In this document: one piece after another, positions 10,284 to 63,083 of the stretch
Numbering within the stretch: position 1 is the first letter of the stretch
How the letters are laid out: every line of letters begins with the position of its first letter
NCBI RefSeq assembly: GCF_006345805.1
Contig: NC_043004.1
Coordinates: 29,884,001-29,948,000, forward strand
Direction of reading: 5' to 3'
DNA from: Octopus sinensis
Lineage: Eukaryota
Length of the DNA stretch: 64,000 bases
Program-made: the position numbers and the translations under genes
Notes under the pieces: model-generated
The model's input: the letters and a program-made list of their open reading frames with translations, nothing else
Databases searched by the model: none
Told to the model about the DNA's origin: nothing

Positions 10284-10379
10284 GTATATGGTCATTTCAT
10301 CATGTTGAACTTTTAATCCCTACACATTTTTTTCTCTTTTTATTTATTTATTTTTCTTTTGTTCTCTATTTTTTCCCTC

Positions 10380-10520
10380 TCAACCCTTTCTTTTGAATAA
10401 TGTAGGCTTGAAGCATCAAAGACTTTCCATTCTTCCTGAGCATCAAACTAATATACCTGCTTGTTGTTCCCTCACTTGTCTTTGTTTTTTTTGTTTTCTA
10501 TAATTTTGAACTATATATAT
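10380..10520 (+). mobile_element. Decayed copy of the short (TA)-associated HHR-bearing element (family of 62596-62770)
   Basis: Reverse complement matches ACAGGTGTATTAGT...GCTC.GGAA...AAGTCTTT seen at 19600, 56815 and 62596; abuts (TA)n. Confidence 0.6.
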
Positions 10521-17838: not shown

Positions 17839-17885
<47 letters not shown>

Positions 17886-18035
17886 GTATGTGTATGTACA
17901 TAGATATGTATGTATATGTGGGTGTGTGTATATATGTATGTCTATGATTTGTATATATATATATATATGTGTATTTGTTTATATATATGTATTTATAAAT
18001 GTATATATATGTGTACATATATGTATTTGTACATA

Positions 18036-18067
<32 letters not shown>

Positions 18068-18698
18068 GGTATGTGTGTATATATATGCTTATGTATGTAT
18101 GCATATATGTATTTACATATATGCATGTATGCATATATGTATATACATATGTGTGTGTATACACATATATATGTGCGTATATATTGCATATGTATGAATG
18201 TATGCATATGTATATATATATTTATGTGTATGTATATATACATATATATATTTCTGTACATACATGCATATATTTGTATATATATATATGTATACATATA
18301 TATATATATATATATATATCAAAATGTGCATGGATATATATATATATGTGTGTGAGTGTATGTACACATATCTATGAGTGTATATATATGTATATAATAT
18401 ATGCCTTTTTACGTATATATATGTGAATATGTGTATAATATATAATTATATACATGTATATGTATCAACATAAGTATATGTATATGCATGTATATACATA
18501 TGTATATATAAATGTATATGTATATATATATATGTGTTTATATATATATATATATATATATGTATGCATATATATATAGGTAAATATGTATATATATATA
18601 TATGTATATACATAAATCTCTATGTATATGTATACATGTATATATATGCTTATTTATATATGTATAGATATATGTGTATGTGTGTATATATATATATA
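17822..18698. repeat. Long imperfect (TA/TG)n simple-sequence tract
   Basis: Directly visible; generates the 223/172-aa pseudo-ORFs. Confidence 0.95.
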
Positions 18699-18699
18699 T

Positions 18700-19012
18700 T
18701 TAACAATTAAGGATAAAATCTTAACAAGAAATTATCAGGTTGTTAGCGTGAAAAACCTCATAAGAGAAAAAATCTGAAAATTTTTTCACATTTTGTTTAT
18801 TTTTGATGTATTCTGAATATGTTTCACTGATGAACAAATGATGTAAATAATACGTTAATTGCGAAATCACAAGTGATCTGAAACTAAATTCTTTTTCTAA
18901 ATGTCTTGCTTCGAGAGCTGTATTTGGGACGATTCGTTTATTTTTGGTAGTAATGACTTTGAAAGTCCCTCCTAGCGTGTGGCATTTATGTGTAATAATG
19001 CCCTCTATATAA
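18700..19012 (+). mobile_element. ~310-bp non-coding element inserted in (TA)n, carrying a hammerhead (Penelope-like terminal repeat/retrozyme-type)
   Basis: Flanked by (TA)n on both sides; opposite-orientation fragment of the same family at ~21940-22075 (GGATAAAATC...AAAAACCTCAT; GGCATTTATGTGTA.TAATGCCCT). Confidence 0.65.
18821..18884 (+). ncRNA. Type I hammerhead ribozyme, near-intact
   Basis: Stem I GTTTCA/TGAAAC; core CTGATGA 18827-18833; 12-position stem II with 2 mismatches including an A-C closing pair; GAAA 18863-18866; stem III A-TCAC-aa-GTGA-T; AUC cleavage triplet ending 18878. Confidence 0.85.
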
Positions 19013-19049
19013 TATATTTATATATATATATATGTATGTATATAAATAT

Positions 19050-19232
19050 ATCATCATCATCATCATCATCATCATTTAACATGCGTTTTCCATGCTAGCA
19101 TGGGTTGGACAGTTTGACCGGGGTCTGGGAACCAGGAGGCTGTACCAGGCTCCAGTCTGATCTGGCAGTGTTTCTACAGCTGAATGTCCTTCCTAATGCC
19201 AACCACTCCATAAGTGTAGTTTACTTGCCACC
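19050..19232 (-). mobile_element. RTE-tail-like retroposon
   Basis: (CAT)n-TTAAC...TTCCATGCTAGCATGGGTTGGAC...CTACAGCTG...GCCAACCACTCC. Confidence 0.85.
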
Positions 19233-19573
19233 GGTATGTATGTATGTGTGTATATATGTATGTATAAATATATAGGTATACATATGTATGTATGTGTGTA
19301 TATATGTATATAGATATACATATGTATGTGTATATATATATGTATGCGTACATATATAAATATACATATGTATGTATGTGTATATATATATGTATACATA
19401 TAAATATAGATATGTATGTATAAATATATAGATGTATGTGTATATATGTATGTATAAGTATATATATATATATATTTATAAATAAGGATAATATTGATAT
19501 TATCAAGTGGCCAGCATGGGAAAAATACCATACAAAGGTAATAATTTTTTTTACAACTAAAAATATTTTTACT

Positions 19574-19606
<33 letters not shown>

Positions 19607-20029
19607 GAAACTTACAAAAAACAGGTGTATTAGTTTGATGCTCTGGAAATTGAGAAACTGCTTTATGTTTTGGAACCGATGCTCTGCAGTAGAAAATAGT
19701 AAGACAAAATAAACAGTGAGCCATTAAAAAAAAAAAATTTGTGTGGACGTCCCAAAATGATATGCATACGACCATGTTCAAGTTTCTCCTTTTTCTCTTC
19801 TTTGCCCTTTTTCATTATTAATTCTTTACTTTGATGAATCCCCATATTTCGGATCAGTTTTATTACCAAATATGATATTTTTAGCATATGAATTACTATA
19901 CCATACAACGTTGGAAGCAGAAGCAGCTGTTAGACAGTATGTAGTCTGTTTGTATTCTATTGATAAATAATAATTGGTTTAAGTCAATTGTTGTTCATCA
20001 ATATTTCTCATATTTTCATATACTTTAAA

Positions 20030-21910: not shown

Positions 21911-22496
21911 GGAAAAATTAATAAAAAAATATTTATTTATATTAAGGGCATTAATACACATAAATGCCCTTAATATAAATAGATATATTTAAAGGGAATA
22001 ATTATAATTTTTTCCTACATGAGGTTTTTTACGCTGACTGACTATTTGATAAATTCTTATAAAGATTTTATCCTGTTCAAAATTTTTAATGTATGTATAT
22101 ATATATCGATGTATGTATAAATAAATATGTATATATATACATGTGTCTATATATGTGTATATATATATATATGCATATACATGTCTGTATATATATATGT
22201 ATCTATATATATGTGTGTCTATGTATTTGTATGTGTATGTATATATATGTGTGTGTATTTGTATGTGTATGTATATATATGTGTGTGTGTATTTGTATGT
22301 GTATATATATATATGTGTGTGTGTGTGTATATACGTTTGTATATATGTATGTCTATATATATGTGTGTGTTGAATGATTATTTAGCATAACGTAGATTTA
22401 TCTGTCTATATATATATATCTATGTGTGTGTATATATAGATGTATGTGTCTATACGTATATATACATATATGTATATGCATCTATGTATATGTGTG

Positions 22497-26082: not shown

Positions 26083-26885
26083 CAAGATGGTATCAAAAAG
26101 TCCCTGGACTAGTTCTGTATTGTGCCCAGTGAGAGCTAGCAGTGACCTTCATAGGGCAGTGTGCTGAGTAACATCACTGTGTTTGCTTCACAAGTTGTGA
26201 GATTTGTGATTTTGTGATCACATGTATGCTGTAGTCGGCAATTTTTGTCATGGGTGGGAAGTTGGAACAGAGACATTAGCATGCTTTGGCAAGCTTACAG
26301 TGATGAGGCAATGGGTTGTACACAATGTTTTGAGTGGCCTGGGTGCTTCCAAAGCAGAAAAATGTCCATGGAAGACCTGCCATAAGTGTCAGTCCTGGAA
26401 ATATGGAGAAAATTCATCAGCTTGTGTATGAGGATCATCAGAAGACAATCAACGACATGGCTGATGTCGTATGGGTCCATGCAGGCAATTCTAATGTCCA
26501 CAAAGAAGTGGATTATTCATGACAACAATACACCCTCTCACTGAACTCTTCTCGCACGAGTTTCTTGCCCAAAATGTGATATTGCTTCCACATCCACCCT
26601 ATTCACCAGGTTTAGCACCTGCAGACTTTCATCTTTTCCCCAAGATAAAAACACCACTCAAAGATCACCTTTTTTATCACTGTTGTCAAGATCAAGAGCG
26701 AATTACAGAAGTTCCTCGACTCACTTATGGAAAACATCTTCCAAGCCAGATTCCAAAAGTGGCAGGAGCACTGCAACTTGTTCATTGTTGTGCAAAGTGA
26801 CTGTTTTGAAGGAGATGATATTAAAACTTAGGTAAACAAGTTATTTCTTATTAAACATAACTAACCCAGGAACATTACCACCTTG
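26083..26885 (+). mobile_element. Internally deleted mariner transposon
   Basis: GRP..S...KIHQLVYEDHQKTI HTH relic, IHDNNTPSH, HPPYSPGLAPADFHLFPKIK (YSPDLAPxD motif); imperfect TIRs CAAGATGGTA/TACCACCTTG with TA duplication. Confidence 0.9.
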
Positions 26886-33736: not shown

Positions 33737-34115
33737 CATCATCATCCATTGTTTAATGTCCGGGTTGGACGTTTCGACCAGGGTCTGGGAAGCCAGGAGG
33801 CTGCACCAGGCTCCGGTCTTATCTGGCAATGTTTCTACAGCTGGATGCCCTTCCTAACGCCAATCACTCTGTGAGTGTAGTGGGTGCTATTTATGTGCCA
33901 CCGGCACAGGTGCCAGGGGAGGCTGATAGTGACCACGATCAGTTGGTGCTTTTTATGTGTCACCGGCACAGAAGCCAGTCAAGGCGGCACTGGCATCGGC
34001 CACATTCAGTTGGTGCTTTTTACGTGCTGCCGGCACAGGTATCATAACTACAATTTCCATTTGATATTTATTTTGATGATGTACTTGACTCAATAGGTCT
34101 CCTCAAGCACAGCAG
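33737..34115 (-). mobile_element. RTE-tail-like retroposon with diverged internal repeats
   Basis: Same family as 61888-62480; 3 diverged TTTATGTGCCACCGGCACAG units. Confidence 0.85.
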
Positions 34116-36853: not shown

Positions 36854-38080
36854 CAGGGTGCTGAAGGTATTCGTTTGCATGATGACTGTATCAGGAAAAA
36901 ATTATATAGTACTTTTATTTTTTGAGATATATTCATCAAATTTGGGTCACTTTGTCTTCATGACATGTTCTATCAATCTCACTCAATGAACCTGCCTTTG
37001 GCCCCAATGACAGCCTCCAGGCCATCCCAGAGCTGGTCACAGATCTTCATTACCATCTCCTGAATGCCCTGGTAATCCTGGCCCTCAGCTTATCCTTCAT
37101 GTTGCAGCTGGATTTGTTGGTCTCTTGTTCCAACACACGCCACACAAAGAAGTCGAAGGGGCTGCAGTCAGATGAGTTGAGAGGCTAAATGTCAGGTGCT
37201 GTGTGAGTGAAAAACTTCTTCAACAGGGAGGCCTGGGTCTTCTGGCTAGTGTGTCAGGGTGAAGATTCTTGCTGCCACATGTACACTCTCCCTGCAGCTA
37301 TTGAGTTGATCCAAGGCTTCACCACCCATTCAGAACACAGATGTAGCTGTCAGTGTTCCACCTAAGGTTCTCAAGGAAGAAGTGATATGGCATGATGTCA
37401 CCTTCACTGCTGACATCAATGAAGATTGTAACAGGAAATTTCGTCTTTGAGTGAGACAGAGAGCCACTGTTTTTCTCAAAGTTGATCTTCTGCTCTTGGC
37501 AGAAATTCTTCTTGTTGGAGAAGAACCACATGTCTAGCTCCAACAGGTGTTGGTCAGCTTCTTGGTGTGCTTGAGTTACTTTTCCTGCATTACCATGGAC
37601 AGAAATTGGTCCCACCCTCATCTTGTAGGAAAAGTAACGAATGTCTTCATACACCACTAACTTAATGAGCCTTTCCATCCACACCTTTTTCATATGCATT
37701 GGCATTCTGGGATCATTGTTGATGATCTCTTGAATTTCAGTGTTCTGATGGTGTCAGATCATCAATCAGGGTTTTCAACTCTGTTGTTGCCTCATAGTTG
37801 AATCTTCCAGCTCCTTTACAACCTTTTCTACCATTCTGCAGCTGATGTTGAAGAAATCTGATATCTCCTTGTTTATCCTTCTGGCATGGATTCCAAGGTG
37901 GACTCTCTTCCTCTTCCATGAACTGAGGTGGGGTTCAAAATTTTCCATAGTCAATTATTCTGTGAAAAAAATAAAGTAAAAATGGTTATTGTTTTTAAGA
38001 AGAAAAAGACTAACAATGAAAGTAAAAACATGCATAAAATTAGCAGATGAAAACTGCAAACAACCACCATCCGCACCCTA
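36854..38080 (-). mobile_element. Tc1/mariner superfamily (DD37D/maT-like) transposon, decayed, about full length
   Basis: TIRs CAGGGTGCTGAAGGTA..GTTTGCA / TGCAAAC..CCATCCGCACCCTA; motifs WFFSNKKNF, TKFPVTI..VSSEGDIMPYHFF, PLNSSDCSPFDFFVW. Confidence 0.85.
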
Positions 38081-40679: not shown

Positions 40680-41660
40680 AGGTCTTCTCAAGAACCTCAT
40701 GTCACCAAGCATCTCAGTCCATTGTCATCTCATCAGTGAGGTCCAACATCCTGAGGTTGGTCCTCACTACTTCATCCCATGTCTACCTCTCCCACAGGTG
40801 CCATCCACTTGCAGTGATCAGCACTTCTTTATACTACTGTCTTCATTCATACACATCACATGTCCAAACCAACATAGTTTTCTCTCTTGCATTCTGCATC
40901 TGATTCCCATTATGCTCAACTTTTCTCTCAAACCATTTGCACTTCGTCGTACATGCACCCTGATGTTGCATATCCATCAGAGCACACAAGCTTCATTCTT
41001 CTCTTGTCTATGCATGTCTTCTGCATTCCTGGAATTTCTTCTCCAATTCTGCTACAGATACTGCAATAAGAATGAGGTCATCAGTACATAGTAGTTCCCA
41101 AGGGCAGCCAGTTTTGAGTTCCACTGTATTCATGCCAACTCCATCCTACTAACAGTACAGCTGTACATGGCTTGTACAGCTCTAACAAGCCACTCATCTA
41201 TTCCTAACTTCCTTAGAGACCACCTGATAATAGAACAAGTGACTCTGTCGAATGCTTTCTCCTAGTCAATGAAAGCCAAGTACAATGGTTTACTCTTTGC
41301 CAGATACTTCACCTGTAGCTGTCTGCCTAGGAAGAAGGCATCTGTGGTTCTCTTCTCAGGCACAAAACCACATTGCATCCCATCTAATTTAATTCTCTTC
41401 TTAATTAATTGAGCTATAACCCTTTCTGTAACTTTCATGACCTGGTCTACCACTTTGATACCCCTGTGGTTGTTTCTATCTAAGGTATCACCTTTACCCT
41501 TGTAGTAACTAACTATAATACCATCACAGCAGTCATTGGGGATGATGTCTACCTGGATAACCTGATTAACTATACAAGTGAAGAGGCTGTATCCTACACT
41601 GCCAAATATTTTAAGCATCTCAGCGCTGATTCCTGATGGTCCAGGGACTTGCCTTGTCTT
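40680..41660 (-). mobile_element. RTE-clade LINE reverse transcriptase pseudogene (internally deleted)
   Basis: GPSGISAEMLK, YKGKGD..DRNNHRGIK, QCGFVPEKRTTDA, LAFID*EKAFDRV, LLCTDDL (YADD equivalent), WFGHV..GRGR. Confidence 0.93.
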
Positions 41661-42219
41661 TATATCCGGTATTAATTTTGTTTTAGAAGACTTGTCTTCT
41701 GAGTACAGGACAGTGTCATATGTCTTATCTATCTATAATACTAATTACAGTAAAATTAAGTAATTAGTCATCCATTTGCTTATCAAACTTTAGCCATAGA
41801 ACACTATTAGATAACATAATAACACTTAAATAGCATAATAAAGCATAAAATGAAAAAAAAAGGAAATAAAAAAAATAACACAAAATAAATAAATGTGGAA
41901 AGGAAAGTTGAAAAGGAGGTCGAGAGTGTTTACAATCAAATTATAAAAGAAAACGTGACTCTAAGTAACATGGCTTTTACTATGGTTGTGGATCACTGGG
42001 TACATATGCTCTAAAAGAACAAATGTGAAGGGGGTGAAATTTCCCACAAGACTGGTTTTGAAGCATGAATTGCTCATATACACACACACACTCATGCATA
42101 TGCATCATATGTATGCATCCTCAAAAATTCACACATACACACACACACACATACGCACTTACACAGCAACGATCACTGTTTAATTCTTTCAAACCCTATT
42201 CCTGTTGTGAGTGTGTGAA

Positions 42220-45722: not shown

Positions 45723-46549
45723 GGTACTGTAGAAGCCATAGCGACTCATAATAAAAAAGAGTTCTGGTGAATATCCCAGTGAAGACCTCAATAAAATGTA
45801 AGCACAACAGACCTGACATAATGATTTGGGATAGAGAAGAGAAACTGTGTACAGTTGTGGGAATTAGCTGCCCAGTGGATGTTAACATAAAGCTGAAGAT
45901 CAGTGAAAAAGAAAACACCTATGCAGTTACTCTATCCAGATTACAAGTTCAGGTTTATACCTGTAATTATTGGGGCCCTGGGATATGTAACACACTGCCT
46001 AAATACCAGTCTTGGGAAAATAGCCTTCTCAAAATCAGAAAGGAGAAAGCTAATTCGAAGACTACAGATCCAATCCATCACTGGAACTGTAAAAATCTGT
46101 AAAACTTTCCAGAAATTTATCATTTAAATATATATGAGCATGTCTAGATATGCAACTATATGCATGAGAATACACACACAAAGCAAAACATATTGGGTTG
46201 GTGCATAATTATTGTGGCTTTTTTTCAACAAATTTTATTGAACAAAAACAATAACATGTAACAAAAACATCCTTAAATGATTATTCTGGAGCATATTCAC
46301 CATCTACTTCAGTAGATGGTGAATACATTACCCATTTGCTTGGCAGACAGTCAGACCATCATTTAAAGATAAAATTTGTTGAAAAAAGTCGCAATAATTA
46401 TGCACCAACCCAGTACGAATCTGCACATATACATGCAAACAAAAAACCCTGTTGTTGATGTTGAAATTCCAATGAAGGAGCCTTGTACCTAGGTTAGAAA
46501 CCAGCACTTTCTCTATTGGCAAGAAATCTTGAAATAAAACTGAATAATG
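45723..46549 (+). mobile_element. 5'-truncated R4/Dong-type non-LTR retrotransposon (restriction-like endonuclease C-terminus plus 3' UTR)
   Basis: HNRPDIMIWD...GISCPVD..I..K.SEKENTY / FIPVIIGALG...LQIQSITGTVKICK, frameshifted; RLE signature RPD..E(here G)..K..Y..GALG. Confidence 0.88.
46193..46413. mobile_element. Mariner-derived MITE nested in the LINE 3' UTR
   Basis: TIR TTGGGTTGGTGCATAATTATTG / CAATAATTATGCACCAACCCAG, TA duplication; TIR resembles the Hsmar1/cecropia type. Confidence 0.88.
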
Positions 46550-50023: not shown

Positions 50024-50059
50024 AGTACTAAAAGACTATCAGGGAAGGAAAGAAAGGTT

Positions 50060-50094
50060 GTTTAATATTTCAAGCAAAGCTCTTCTTCAGAAAC
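50060..50094 (-). ncRNA. Minimal type I hammerhead motif
   Basis: Minus strand GTTT-CTGAAGA-A-GAGC-ttt-GCTT-GAAA-TA-TT-AAAC; differences from GCTC-GAAA-CG look like CpG decay. Confidence 0.7.
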
Positions 50095-50306
50095 AGGAGA
50101 CAGAGGAAAGTTCAAGAGAAAAGGAAGACGGAGGAAAAAAATTGGCCAACAATCCACATGTAGTTACATATGTATAAAGTGTTTGAAGTGGTGTACAGAT
50201 ATTGTATATTGAGAAAAGGAGGCAATCAGAATTTTGGATAATTCTTTATTAGCATTTTCATTCATTTATCGAACTCATCAAGACAGACCATTTTGATTTT
50301 GTCTTG

Positions 50307-54572: not shown

Positions 54573-55292
54573 GTACTAGAAGTCCATTTAATTCAAGAAA
54601 CCAGATTAAATGCTCATCAACTCTGATTTACAACACATTAGGTCCCTAGACGAAACTGTTGATTTACTGACAATTCTACAACTAAATTTTATCAATCTCC
54701 TGACCACCATGCTTGGTCCGTAACCTATATACATCCCTTATCTTTACATTCTTTTACATTTTTATCATGTTTTTATCATGTTTTTTTTACTCTTATTTCT
54801 ATTTCTATTTTTACTTTATAACCTTATGCCTTTACATTTACTTATATTTCTTTATATTTCTTTATATCCTTTATACCCCCTTTACATCTCCTTATAACTC
54901 TTTATATCTTTATGCTCTACATTTTTATATTTTTCTATACTTACACCTTTTATACATTTGTTATCCCTGGTCCCGAATTCTCGCCCCTCCATCTTCACGT
55001 CTATATATGTATTTATTTATTTACATTACCTCAACATCCAGTTTTTCCTCATTCTACATTGAGAGAAGAAGGAGATGGACGCTTCAATTCTATGCTGCTG
55101 CCGCATTATGTCGTACGCGAATGAGAGGATTCGCATCCCCAACCAAGAATTTTTGATGTAACACATGTCCTTGTGGAAGCTGTTGTGCGCGGCTGAAGAA
55201 GGCCACAGACATACATTATGCATTGTTATAAATCTGTCTAATGAAGGCCCGAAACATATGTACCGCTGAATCCTTCGCATCATGTTTTTATT
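54573..55292 (+). mobile_element. Probable Penelope-like element 3' end with hammerhead
   Basis: Possible GIY-YIG tail VLEVHLIQETR../LINSD, pyrimidine-rich UTR, HHR at 55189-55266, then (TA)n. Confidence 0.45.
55189..55266 (+). ncRNA. Type I hammerhead ribozyme, canonical core
   Basis: Stem I GCGG/CCGC; CTGAAGA 55193-55199; stem II GGCC...GGCC(C) with long loop; GAAA 55251-55254; C-ATAT-G stem III; GUA site ending 55262. Confidence 0.8.
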
Positions 55293-56370: not shown

Positions 56371-56814
56371 GCTGAAAATTTGTGAACCTATGTTTGGGAG
56401 GCAAGTATACCAAACTTTGAAAGTGTTTGTATTGAATATTTAAAGATATTTATCTAAACTGGGAAAGTAATTATTGACAAGTGTGAGATACTATCTCACA
56501 GTGTCTGTCACCTCATTAATATGATGTGGCAAATGTGTGTGTAGCTGGCACTCAATCGATTATGATGATGATTGTTTCAGCCTGCTTGTAAAGTTAATGT
56601 GCAAGTGGCTGAGAACTCCACAGACACATGTACCCTTAATGTAGCTCTCAGAGAGATTCAGTGACACAGAATATGACAAGGCAGGTATTACTCATTTTTG
56701 CCAGCTGAATGGAGTGGAGAATCATGAAATAAAGTATATTACTCAAGGACCTTATGATTGTGAGCTGAATCCCCTAATTACTAAGCCACACACCTTCACT
56801 ATATATGCATATAT

Positions 56815-56990
56815 ATAGTTGGAATTTACAAAAAACAAAAGATGAAGACAGTTGTATAAACAACAAACAGGTGTATTAGTTAAATGCTCGGGAAGCTGAG
56901 GAAGTCTTTTATGGTTTGAGTCTATGCTCTTCAACAGAACGGAAACGAGAAAATAAACAAACAGAGAATAAAAAAAGCTTTAGTGGCTCC
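56815..56990 (-). mobile_element. Short (TA)-associated element (family of 62596), hammerhead decayed
   Basis: AAAAAACAAAAGATGAAGACAG...GTATTAGT...AAGTCTTTT...GCTCTTC.ACAGAA. Confidence 0.7.
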
Positions 56991-57099
56991 TACAAAAGGA
57001 GACATTCGTCGCCAACTCCTTACGTATGCCGCATGGTCACTCCCTAACAGAATATAAGAGGGAAGCCAAATACATTATATAGAATACAGTGCCAAAGGA

Positions 57100-59034: not shown

Positions 59035-60300
59035 TTACTTGTGTGCCCTCACAGTCCCACAGGCATTAGTCCTCCTTGTCTGCAGCTGCAGGAAGAGGTC
59101 CAGACTGAAAAACCAGTTGTCTATATAAATATTGTAGCCTTTGTCAAACAAGTTTACATTCAGTGACAACACAACATCAGTTGTCACTAGAGTAGATGCT
59201 GGCAGATCCAATCTGTCCATACCAGTGTAGATTTTATAATTCCACATGTACCTACCGGCTCTGCCAGCTGACAGATCCAATCTGTCCTTACCAGTGTAGA
59301 TTTTATAATTCCACATGTACCTACCGGCTCTGCCAGCTGACTGGCATATTTTATAAATCTCGACTCCAAAGCTGGTACATTTGGTCAGGTTATATTGTTT
59401 GAATCAGAGCCTTCCCTTGAATTTCCACAAACTCTCGTCTGTACAAACATCCTTCATTGGGACATACATCGTTCTGAAATTTTCAGCCACTTCGTCAATG
59501 ATAGGACATATTTTGTGCAGCCTGTCATCTTTGTTCTTGCCTAAGTTGAAATGTAGATTTTGAAGAAGCATCAAAAATCGATTATGTGGCATCGTTTCCA
59601 GAAAGAAAGGTGTGAACATGGCTGGATCCCAATTCCAGTATGACACTAGTGTTGCTTTCTTCATGATATCCATCAGTATCAGTAGAACTTTGATTTTGTC
59701 CCCTGTAGTTGGAAACCAACCACCACCATGCTGGGGATGGTTTTCAGCATAGTCAATCATTCCGTCTGCTATATATTGGAATATTTCATCCGACAAAAAC
59801 TTGTGCAAGATTTCCAATGGCAAACTTCCATCTTCAAGGTTTGCCTTTATGCCAGGCATACCAGTACCATGCTGTCGGACAAAATTGTCTCTTGCTCGTC
59901 ACATGACATTCTGTTGTCCAGGGCCATTCACTGCTGCCCGCTTGTATCTTTGATTCACTGGAATATCATCATCACTATTGGAATCATCTGATTCTGAACT
60001 TGGAAAATATTCACTCTCTGAGTCATTGTCCAAACCGGAAAAAACAACTGGTGTGGTGATGGAGTTTAGTTGGCATGACAACTGTAAATTCGCTAAACAG
60101 GATGTGAAGATGAAGTTGACAGAGCCAGAGTAGCAAGACCAGCCTATTAGGTTGTAAATATTTACATGAAACAAATAACCAGCCTATCAGTTAGCAGGTG
60201 CACCGGTGACTAGTTCTAAGTCAGACAGCGTATAATTACATTGACCAATTTGAAGCATATACACTGCATGTGTAAATTTACAACAACCATCTTAAAAGGG
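59035..60300 (-). mobile_element. piggyBac transposon, 3'-truncated; PGBD4-like transposase pseudogene
   Basis: TTAA-CCCTTT left end at 60300; MPHNRF..LHFN..DRLHKICPII, TDESLWKFKGRL*FKQY, IYIDNWF, NACGTVR. Confidence 0.93.
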
Positions 60301-61887: not shown

Positions 61888-62482
61888 TCATCATCATCAT
61901 CAATTAACGTCCGCTTTCCATGCTAGCATGGGTTGGACGGTTCAACTGGGGTCTGGGGAGCCCGAAAGCTGCACCAGTCCAGTCAGATCTGGCAGTGTTT
62001 CTACAGCTGGATGCCCTTCCTAACGCCAACCACTCCGAGAGTGTAGTGGGTGATTTTATGTGCCACCGACACAGGTGCCAGACGAGGCTGGCAAACGGCC
62101 ACGCTCGGATGGTGTTTTTTATGTGCCACCGACACAGGTGCCAGACGAGGCTGGCAGACGGCCACGCTCGGATGGTGTTTTTTATGTGCCACCGACACAG
62201 GTGCCAGACGAGGCTGGCAGACGGCCACGCTCGGATGGTGTTTTTATGTGCCACCGACACAGGTGCCAGACGAGGCTGGCAGACGGCCACGCTCGGATGG
62301 TGTTTTTATGAGGCTGGCAAACGGCCACGATCGGATGGTGCTTGTTACGTGCCCACAGCACGGAGGCCAGTCGATGCGGTACTGGCTACGGCCACGTTCG
62401 GATGGTTTTCTTATGTGCCACGTGCCACAAAGATACAAATTCCATTGATGTTCATCTATTTTGATTTGTTTTGATTTGATTT
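61888..62482 (-). mobile_element. Young RTE-tail-like retroposon with internal VNTR
   Basis: CpG-rich copy of the family with (CAT)n end. Confidence 0.88.
62054..62340. repeat. 62-63-bp tandem repeat, 4 copies plus a partial
   Basis: ATGTGCCACCGACACAGGTGCCAGACGAGGCTGGCA... at 62058, 62121, 62184 and 62246. Confidence 0.97.
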
Positions 62483-62505: not shown

Positions 62506-62598
<93 letters not shown>

Positions 62599-62684
62599 AG
62601 AGTTTATGAAAAAACAAAAGATGAAGACAGGAGGTGTACAAAACAAACAGATGTATTAGTATAACACTCAGGAATAGAAAAAGT

Positions 62685-62720
62685 CTTTTACGTTTCGAGC
62701 CTACGCTCTTCTACAGAAAG
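62685..62720 (-). ncRNA. Minimal hammerhead-like motif with A6U core variant
   Basis: Minus strand CTTT-CTGTAGA-A-GAGC-gtag-GCTC-GAAA-CG-TA-AAAG, within element 62596-62770. Confidence 0.6.
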
Positions 62721-63083
62721 GATCACAGGAAAAACAAGGAGAGAAAAAAATGTGTGTAGTGGCTAACTACACACATGTCATGTGTGGAGAAGTGCATGTC
62801 ATGTGTTGAGAAGTTTGTGAATGAATGAATGAAGAATGTAAGGGGAGGTAACTGATGATCGTTATTACCGGGGACAGGGGAAGTAATTGCTCATCTTTTG
62901 TGGGGTGGGGATGAATAAATATATATATATATATACAACGTAAAAAAAATAAGGTAAAAGTTTTTATTTTTCATTCATTTCGAAAATTGCTCTTAAATGT
63001 GGTTTTGGACGTTTTGACTGCTTCTTCCAGTGTGTAAAAAAATTACCTGTTAAAGGTAGTTTTCTCTTGTGTTTAACTGTACA

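Follow-up and report, generated by a model that had tools for sequence, protein, structure and literature searches.

Hammerhead ribozymes occur by the thousands in the termini of Penelope-like elements in animal genomes and are so common that one more copy of the Penelope type matters little. Most animal Penelope hammerheads are marked by an extra base between A9 and G10.1, as in their minimal consensus, and palindromic helix III, action in dimers and low activity have been described for hammerheads of these elements (PMC4209133). Penelope-like elements have been described as inserting at TA targets and leaving inverted copies truncated at the 5' end, with additional terminal tails and with hammerheads on the 3' side (PMC8557442). 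In the anole element, both target strands are cut and extended and internal priming takes place; the element inserts normally in vitro with a dead ribozyme, and cleavage by its ribozyme needed the protein (PMC11167929). The hammerheads of invertebrate retrozymes, with a stem III of 2 bp and a tetraloop, cleave as monomers (PMC7229834).

Here, we analysed a hammerhead motif at 18821-18884 of a 64,000-nt stretch of Octopus sinensis DNA (hereafter the window). In our preferred reading, to which we assign a probability of about 0.7, it is a type I hammerhead within a truncated, partly inverted and many-copy repeat, probably the pseudo-LTR at the 3' end of a Penelope-like element, which is predicted to cleave only as a dimer and would be weak or silent as a lone copy. 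The motif resembles the pseudo-LTR Penelope hammerheads with a small palindromic helix III that are described from Drosophila, rotifer, shrimp and mosquito (PMC4209133): both are of type I with a long helix II, both have a helix III of (pseudo)palindromic sequence, with predicted action in dimers, and both occur as single dispersed copies from truncated insertions that vary between copies. Unlike the variants in that report, the window copy has no extra base between A9 and 10.1, a stem I of 6 bp followed by U1.7, an internal loop in helix II and a helix III arm that is longer, with 5 pairs enclosing 2 bases; it also belongs to an A10.1 subfamily, and a linked ORF was not found among 299 of the 538 ORF pieces of the window. 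On the folding predictions given below, it may work like a dimer-type Penelope terminal hammerhead (PMC4209133, PMC6765202).

With the canonical hammerheads of non-LTR retrozymes (PMC7229834; Li, Clavereau and Pollet 2026 preprint), the motif shares the 6-bp helix I, the 4 positions of helix II ahead of the loop, the loop 1/loop 2 contact positions, low GC and an insert of ~300 nt. It differs from them in that no tandem arrangement was seen in the window, the insert consists of two inverted pieces, and helix II continues past the internal loop. The insertion itself is similar to those of endonuclease-bearing Penelope-like elements (PMC8557442, PMC11167929) in its TA/AT-rich target, its combination of an inverted 5'-truncated piece with a direct piece, the extra terminal sequence at one end and the distance of ~130-240 nt between the hammerhead and the 3' ends. 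Unlike in those insertions, the extra terminal piece is ~110 nt in length (90 nt plus linker) versus the 30-40 bp published, and the two pieces do not overlap.

The hammerhead motif and its variation among relatives

The motif consists of the following features:

18821..18884 (+): type I hammerhead motif (sequence pattern, folding, shuffle test)
18821..18826 (+): 5' arm of stem I, pairing with 18879-18884 in 6 Watson-Crick pairs
18815-18/18888-91 (+): predicted 4-bp extension of stem I beyond an internal loop
18827..18833 (+): core C3-A9 (CUGAUGA), with N7 at 18831
18834..18862 (+): stem II (18834-45/18851-62), 10 of 12 positions paired
18863..18866 (+): core G12-A15.1 (GAAA)
18866..18877 (+): pseudo-palindromic stem III region, predicted dimerisation arm, 5 pairs around 2 unpaired bases
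18878..18878 (+): H17 (AUC triplet), predicted cleavage on its 3' side; C in the window copy, A in most relatives
18885..18885 (+): unpaired U1.7, the expected site of the loop-2 contact

The complete core set of a type I hammerhead is present, namely C3U4G5A6N7G8A9, G12A13A14, the A15.1-U16.1 pair, H17, a three-helix junction and an open helix I. The 10.1-11.1 pair, which is usually G-C, is absent from the window copy (A18834.C18862). Stem II starts with this A10.1.C11.1 mismatch, which is followed by 3 bp, an A.A mismatch (18838/18858), a 7-bp distal helix and a 5-nt loop; A18834.C18862 and A18838.A18858 are its only mismatches, and two of its pairs are G.U. The 6-bp stem I, composed entirely of Watson-Crick pairs (18821-26/18879-84), the CTGATGA/GAAA core with an AUC triplet and a predicted cut after C18878, and the long stem II had all been described in the first-pass annotation, and each of these was confirmed.

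A moderate descriptor (stem I of at least 5, stem II of at least 4 and stem III of at least 2 pairs) matched once in the window and twice in 60 windows shuffled block-wise with dinucleotide composition preserved, and a strict descriptor, chosen post hoc, had no match in the 60 shuffles. Part of the region 18700-19010 was found in 20 of the 24 listed sequencing runs (four organisms, ten studies). At 80% likeness, a cut-off that favours window-like letters, 1383, 1331 and 949 contigs were matched in organisms A, B and C, and 29 in X2, a run of organism A guessed to be RNA. None of the runs listed as containing the region is recorded as RNA, and a 159-nt contig in the guessed RNA run X2 (identical, depth 4.8) was set aside as evidence for expression.

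At least 13 variable places are listed within 18821-18884, counting only changes that a contig shows at 31 or more letters from its end, unphased, and summed contig depth is not taken as copy number here. Two of these 13 are the free core positions, where the observed letters are permitted: N7 (18831; U in the window copy, A in some relatives) and H17 (C/A, with A at summed depths of 224/1129, 21750/26167, 3999/4900 and 136/141). Three others are loop bases, and seven are stem positions, of which 18825, 18834, 18842, 18881 and 18883 keep or improve pairing; the change at 18824 pairs only with that at 18881, which is also listed, and the change at 18839 opens a pair. Among the 11 invariant core bases, a change is listed for C3 alone, in one contig with a depth of 46 out of 827. 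The listed variation is thus found mainly at N7, H17 and loops or consists of pair-keeping stem changes, with a conserved core and mostly retained pairing among the variable places listed. In addition, the loose end of an X2 contig before 18855 comes from a relative that has G10.1 and another sequence in its distal stem II. Compared by eye with the 3' arm of the window copy, this distal stem II carries two double changes, and the internal loop is in the same position; X8 contains a shorter loose end that matches it.

These data bear on the view that the motif is a chance match, free of ribozyme ancestry, in an AT-rich repeat of another class such as a MITE or a Helitron-like element. Such a view could draw on the folding z-score of -0.63 against shuffles (18810-18895), on the terminal hairpin at 18975-18996 and on the Rfam results: no match, and hence no hammerhead family, was found at the gathering score in the whole window, and 27 matches at E≤10 in 18600-19100 were mostly TA-repeat artefacts and contained no hammerhead. 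However, the 0-2 matches in 60 shuffles, the concentration of variation at N7, H17, loops and pair-keeping changes, the relative in which G10.1 and the stem II double changes occur, and the presence in the window of two further hammerhead families that end in TA repeats all speak against it. The hammerhead sequence at 18821-18884 is real and beyond chance. The variation pattern among contigs largely refutes the chance reading, which we regard as extremely improbable, and the first-pass assignment to a type I hammerhead of Penelope-related origin is upheld. Hammerhead pattern scans of metagenome, viral and prokaryote genome contigs yielded no locus in any of the three sets.

The A.C and A.A mismatches of stem II had previously been taken as two private deviations of this copy, which the contigs do not support: A dominates at 18834, and most relatives enlarge the A.A mismatch. 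G at 18834 does occur in the family, as had been suggested; it accounts for 169/719 (X7), 385/5730 (X8), 0/952 (X14) and 13.8/18.6 (X2) of the summed contig depth, and is thus in the minority in the three large runs and in the majority only in X2. A 94-nt contig of X8 (depth 587) with 11 other differences has A18834 unchanged, well inside the contig. A18834 is common to multi-copy relatives and therefore is no private lesion; judged from the contig sequences, A10.1 is a subfamily trait. The A.A mismatch, which follows the fourth position of stem II, is widened to a 2x2 loop (18839 U to A) in 129/251, 4969/5095 and 925/925 of depth. U1.7 would contact the last A of loop 2, for which A18858 is the candidate; the trans-Hoogsteen contact of fast hammerheads joins the same two positions (PMC9217987, PMC11875169).

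An A.C mismatch at 10.1-11.1 slows cleavage. Position 10.1 would have been A instead of G while the subfamily of the window copy spread, a sign that its copying may not have needed fast cleavage. The weight of the 10.1-11.1 pair is shown in PMC544870 and PMC2837043, which give no rate for A.C.

Folding of single and paired copies

The complementary pairs of stem III number five (18866-70/18873-77) when the core pair A15.1-U16.1 is counted, and a 5-bp stem III had been claimed for this motif. This was not borne out: a single strand cannot close all five pairs because only two loop bases (18871-72) remain, and a monomer is limited to the core pair and 3 further bp around a CAAG loop. The stem III hairpin alone (12-nt region) has a predicted energy of 0.0 kcal/mol versus -9.3 for the self-pairing of two copies, and the latter reaches -11.2 with G at 18872, the letter of most relatives.

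In the minimum-energy fold of 18810-18895, stems I and II are retained and stem III is absent, with the core CUGA paired to the 5' arm of stem III. By nearest-neighbour prediction, which ignores tertiary contacts and Mg2+ that could rescue the monomer, the hammerhead fold of a single copy lies 1.3 kcal/mol above this minimum, with probabilities of 0.03-0.05 for the stem III pairs and 0.013 for the full hammerhead fold; in 141 nt of context, the full-fold probability is 0.0004 and stem I drops to 0.02. Replacement by G at 18834 stabilises stem II and not stem III. For two copies of 18812-18894, the predicted minimum is a double hammerhead in which stems I and III are swapped and the cores are open (-30.9 versus 2 x -11.7 kcal/mol for separate copies). 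If 18834 is G, the lowest-energy state of two copies (-38.4) buries the core and is not a double hammerhead, lying 2.9 below a double hammerhead that lacks the stem I extension. The window hammerhead is therefore predicted to fold properly only as paired copies and is probably dimer-dependent, and a lone window copy is, on the same predictions, likely weak or silent.

The first-pass annotation had considered the motif competent as a monomer, for which the folding gives no support (0.013 for the full fold, as against a double hammerhead as the two-copy minimum). A ribozyme of that kind would use a 3-bp stem III plus the core pair, closed by a tetraloop, and would cut any plus-strand transcript at 18878, with the U1.7/A18858 contact stabilising the fold and the A.C at 10.1/11.1 tolerated. 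The complete core, the 6-bp stem I, the presence of U1.7 and an energy just 1.3 kcal/mol above the minimum are compatible with it, A10.1 may be tolerated since it is common to multi-copy contigs, and mussel and coral hammerheads with a short stem III cleave as monomers (PMC7229834). However, the low probability of stem III, the sequestration of the core CUGA by its 5' arm and the near loss of stem I in 141 nt of context weigh against monomer cleavage, as does the absence of G10.1-C11.1, described as highly conserved in natural hammerheads (PMC4209133). Furthermore, 8 of 9 predicted Xenopus retrozyme dimers failed to cleave (bioRxiv 2026.07.22.740005). Cleavage by the monomer thus appears unlikely, and we favour the dimer-dependent reading.

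Insert architecture and proposed origin

The repeat insert extends from 18700 to 19010 (311 nt) between TA tracts, and it and its surroundings can be divided as follows:

17840..18699 (no strand): TA-rich microsatellite, left flank and putative target (sequence)
18700..18789 (-): inverted segment abutting TA repeats (contig comparison)
18791..19010 (+): hammerhead-bearing segment, 5'-truncated at 18791 (contig comparison)
19011..19051 (no strand): TA-rich right flank (sequence), with an unrelated repeat next (about 19052-19235)
21939..22074 (-): second, diverged copy with both outer segments and no hammerhead (repeat comparison)

The hammerhead-bearing segment ends in a small hairpin (18975-18996) followed by an AT-rich stretch. 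At the junction 18789/18791, two pieces of one element meet, which have the opposite relative orientation in other copies. Of the 12 listed joints, six run between 18762-18789 and 19000-19010 with a change of strand; in the other six, the left part is joined without such a change to different break points within 18853-18971. Among 32 listed contig pieces (3719 more exist), none crosses 18789/18791, and several have their last position at 18788-18789 or their first at 18791-18794. Four contigs carry different sequence ahead of 18791, and 11 contigs of X14 continue past 18789 through an AT-rich linker into the right end in reverse complement. The segment 18700-18789 would be the outermost 3' end, because its reverse complement follows 19010 in other copies. 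The simplest reading of these contig sequences is a native order of hammerhead, hairpin, linker, reverse complement of 18700-18789 and TA repeats, with the window copy and the six same-strand joints representing independent truncated inversions.

Several other observations concern this region. The native upstream flank, seen in 4 contigs of X7, contains a splice-donor-like site of textbook form ~45 nt before the core, and most relatives have CAG/GT across loop III. In the Drosophila Penelope, an intron abuts the hammerhead. A short island in TA repeats at 19475-19575 (+) resembles 18700-18770 by eye and was not recovered by nhmmer. Near-perfect inverted repeats (95-97%, 66-86 bp) at 63223-63288/63653-63718 and 44389-44474/44637-44722 lie a few hundred bases apart beside TA tracts and could be further head-to-head insertions.

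An inverted 5'-truncated structure and a microsatellite target are thus present (junction 18789/18791, TA flanks), and the hammerhead stands near the 3' end of the terminal repeat in the native order deduced from joints and loose ends. From this structure, we infer membership in the Penelope-like elements. Pfam searches of 299 of the 538 low-repeat ORF pieces of the window found no RT/GIY-YIG ORF linked to the repeat, and open frames of 98 and 53 aa over the repeat were set aside for having no Pfam match. The ribozyme is more canonical in architecture than most Penelope hammerheads (6-bp stem I, U1.7, retrozyme-like traits): helix II starts directly after A9 in both the window copy and the G10.1 relative, and the minimal animal Penelope class, with an unpaired base after A9, a helix I of 4-5 bp and helix III absent or tiny, does not describe it.

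A possible course of the insertion can be proposed on this basis. The element RNA would carry, in order, the hammerhead, the hairpin, the AT-rich linker and the reverse complement of 18700-18789. An endonuclease would have cut within TA repeats, after which one strand would have primed reverse transcription at the outer end, copying 90 nt, and the other would have primed at the AT-rich linker, copying 220 nt that include the ribozyme; the two truncated copies would then have been joined head to head. Only 30 nt of this segment precede the ribozyme in the truncated window copy. In tandem transcripts of the element, a pair of hammerheads is predicted to exchange stems I and III and to cleave 3' of H17.

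Its canonical build, with a 6-bp stem I, four stem II positions ahead of the loop and no bulge after A9, and the 311-nt length, which is within the retrozyme range, would also suit a dispersed monomer of a non-LTR retrozyme. Such a monomer would come from a non-autonomous tandem unit that its hammerhead cut to length and that, once circular, was inserted again with the help of Penelope machinery. Retrozymes have their origin in pLTRs and can be found as monomers (bioRxiv 10.64898/2026.07.22.740005). Moreover, the summed contig depth rises just past the cut site: between 18883 and 18893, it increases ~15-fold in X7 (3520 to 54740), 2.4-fold in X8 and 2.2-fold in X14. Many copies may start there, or only diverged subfamilies may match downstream, and the latter could produce the same step. 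Pieces starting at 18882 were rejected as cut-site ends, because contigs would be interrupted at that point by a frequent variant at 18881. Against a retrozyme monomer, however, the 311 nt are two inverted pieces rather than one unit, none of the 12 listed joints leads from the 3' end back to the beginning along one strand, and a tandem copy is absent from the window. Head-to-tail tandem units of 170-400 nt were not found in the window, and short contigs could hide arrays. This origin is hardly probable in our view.

The step in depth past the cut site is also the basis of another, rather doubtful reading, in which the repeat is a Penelope-derived octopod family with a hybrid ribozyme, combining a canonical stem I, U1.7 and an internal-loop loop 2 with a dimer-only stem III. 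Many of its short copies would begin at the cleavage site, ribozyme-cut RNA would be the template for copying, and a sister subfamily would have spread with a weakened A10.1.C11.1 core. If true, this family would offer a natural experiment on the function of Penelope hammerheads. We prefer the Penelope-like terminus with a dimer-dependent hammerhead described above.

Other repeats in the window and implications

The window is AT-rich (24-40% GC) and densely occupied by dispersed repeats and TA microsatellites. Pfam detected neither a host gene nor a Penelope protein in the same 299 of 538 low-repeat ORF pieces, and the only match above the cut-off was a broken remnant of a piggyBac-type transposase (PF13843) at 59038-59898 (-), with E values of 1e-21 and 3e-13. 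The sensitivity of Pfam was limited, as an RT fragment at 41265-41732 (-) was missed and recovered by a separate search; it is of LINE type, and its best named relative is from Argonauta hians (58% identity). By eye, a piece of a restriction-like endonuclease and two Tc1/mariner-like pieces were recognised among 45755-46102 (+), 26495-26800 (+) and 37319-37753 (-). The common short repeat at 19052-19235 resembles an octopus SINE; this resemblance and the Argonauta relative point to a host that is likely an octopod. Tandem units of 62-67 nt lie behind this common SINE-like repeat at 62021-62421 and 33856-34052.

A second hammerhead-like motif, of another family, is located at 55189-55266 (+), ~40 nt upstream of TA repeats. 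Its core is intact with an extra A after A9, and it has G10.1-C11.1, a palindromic 6-nt helix III region and a 4-bp stem I, being nearer to the Penelope type than the motif at 18821-18884. A third family carries a minimal Penelope-type hammerhead in five copies, at 62591-62789 (-), 56814-56991 (-), 19616-19746 (-), 10375-10468 (+) and 50049-50161 (-); TA repeats terminate four of the five, and the match of the fifth is weak (E 0.06). Core position 6 is U instead of A in both of the best-preserved copies, and the copy at 50059-50095 has a normal core; an A6U variant throughout the family would be unusual.

Searches of open-access literature found no paper that describes a hammerhead family of octopus or other cephalopods, and the family in the window may be unrecorded. 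It provides material for the question of whether cleavage matters to Penelope retrotransposition, because a single genome allows the comparison of copies with and without G10.1-C11.1 and of many independent truncation points.
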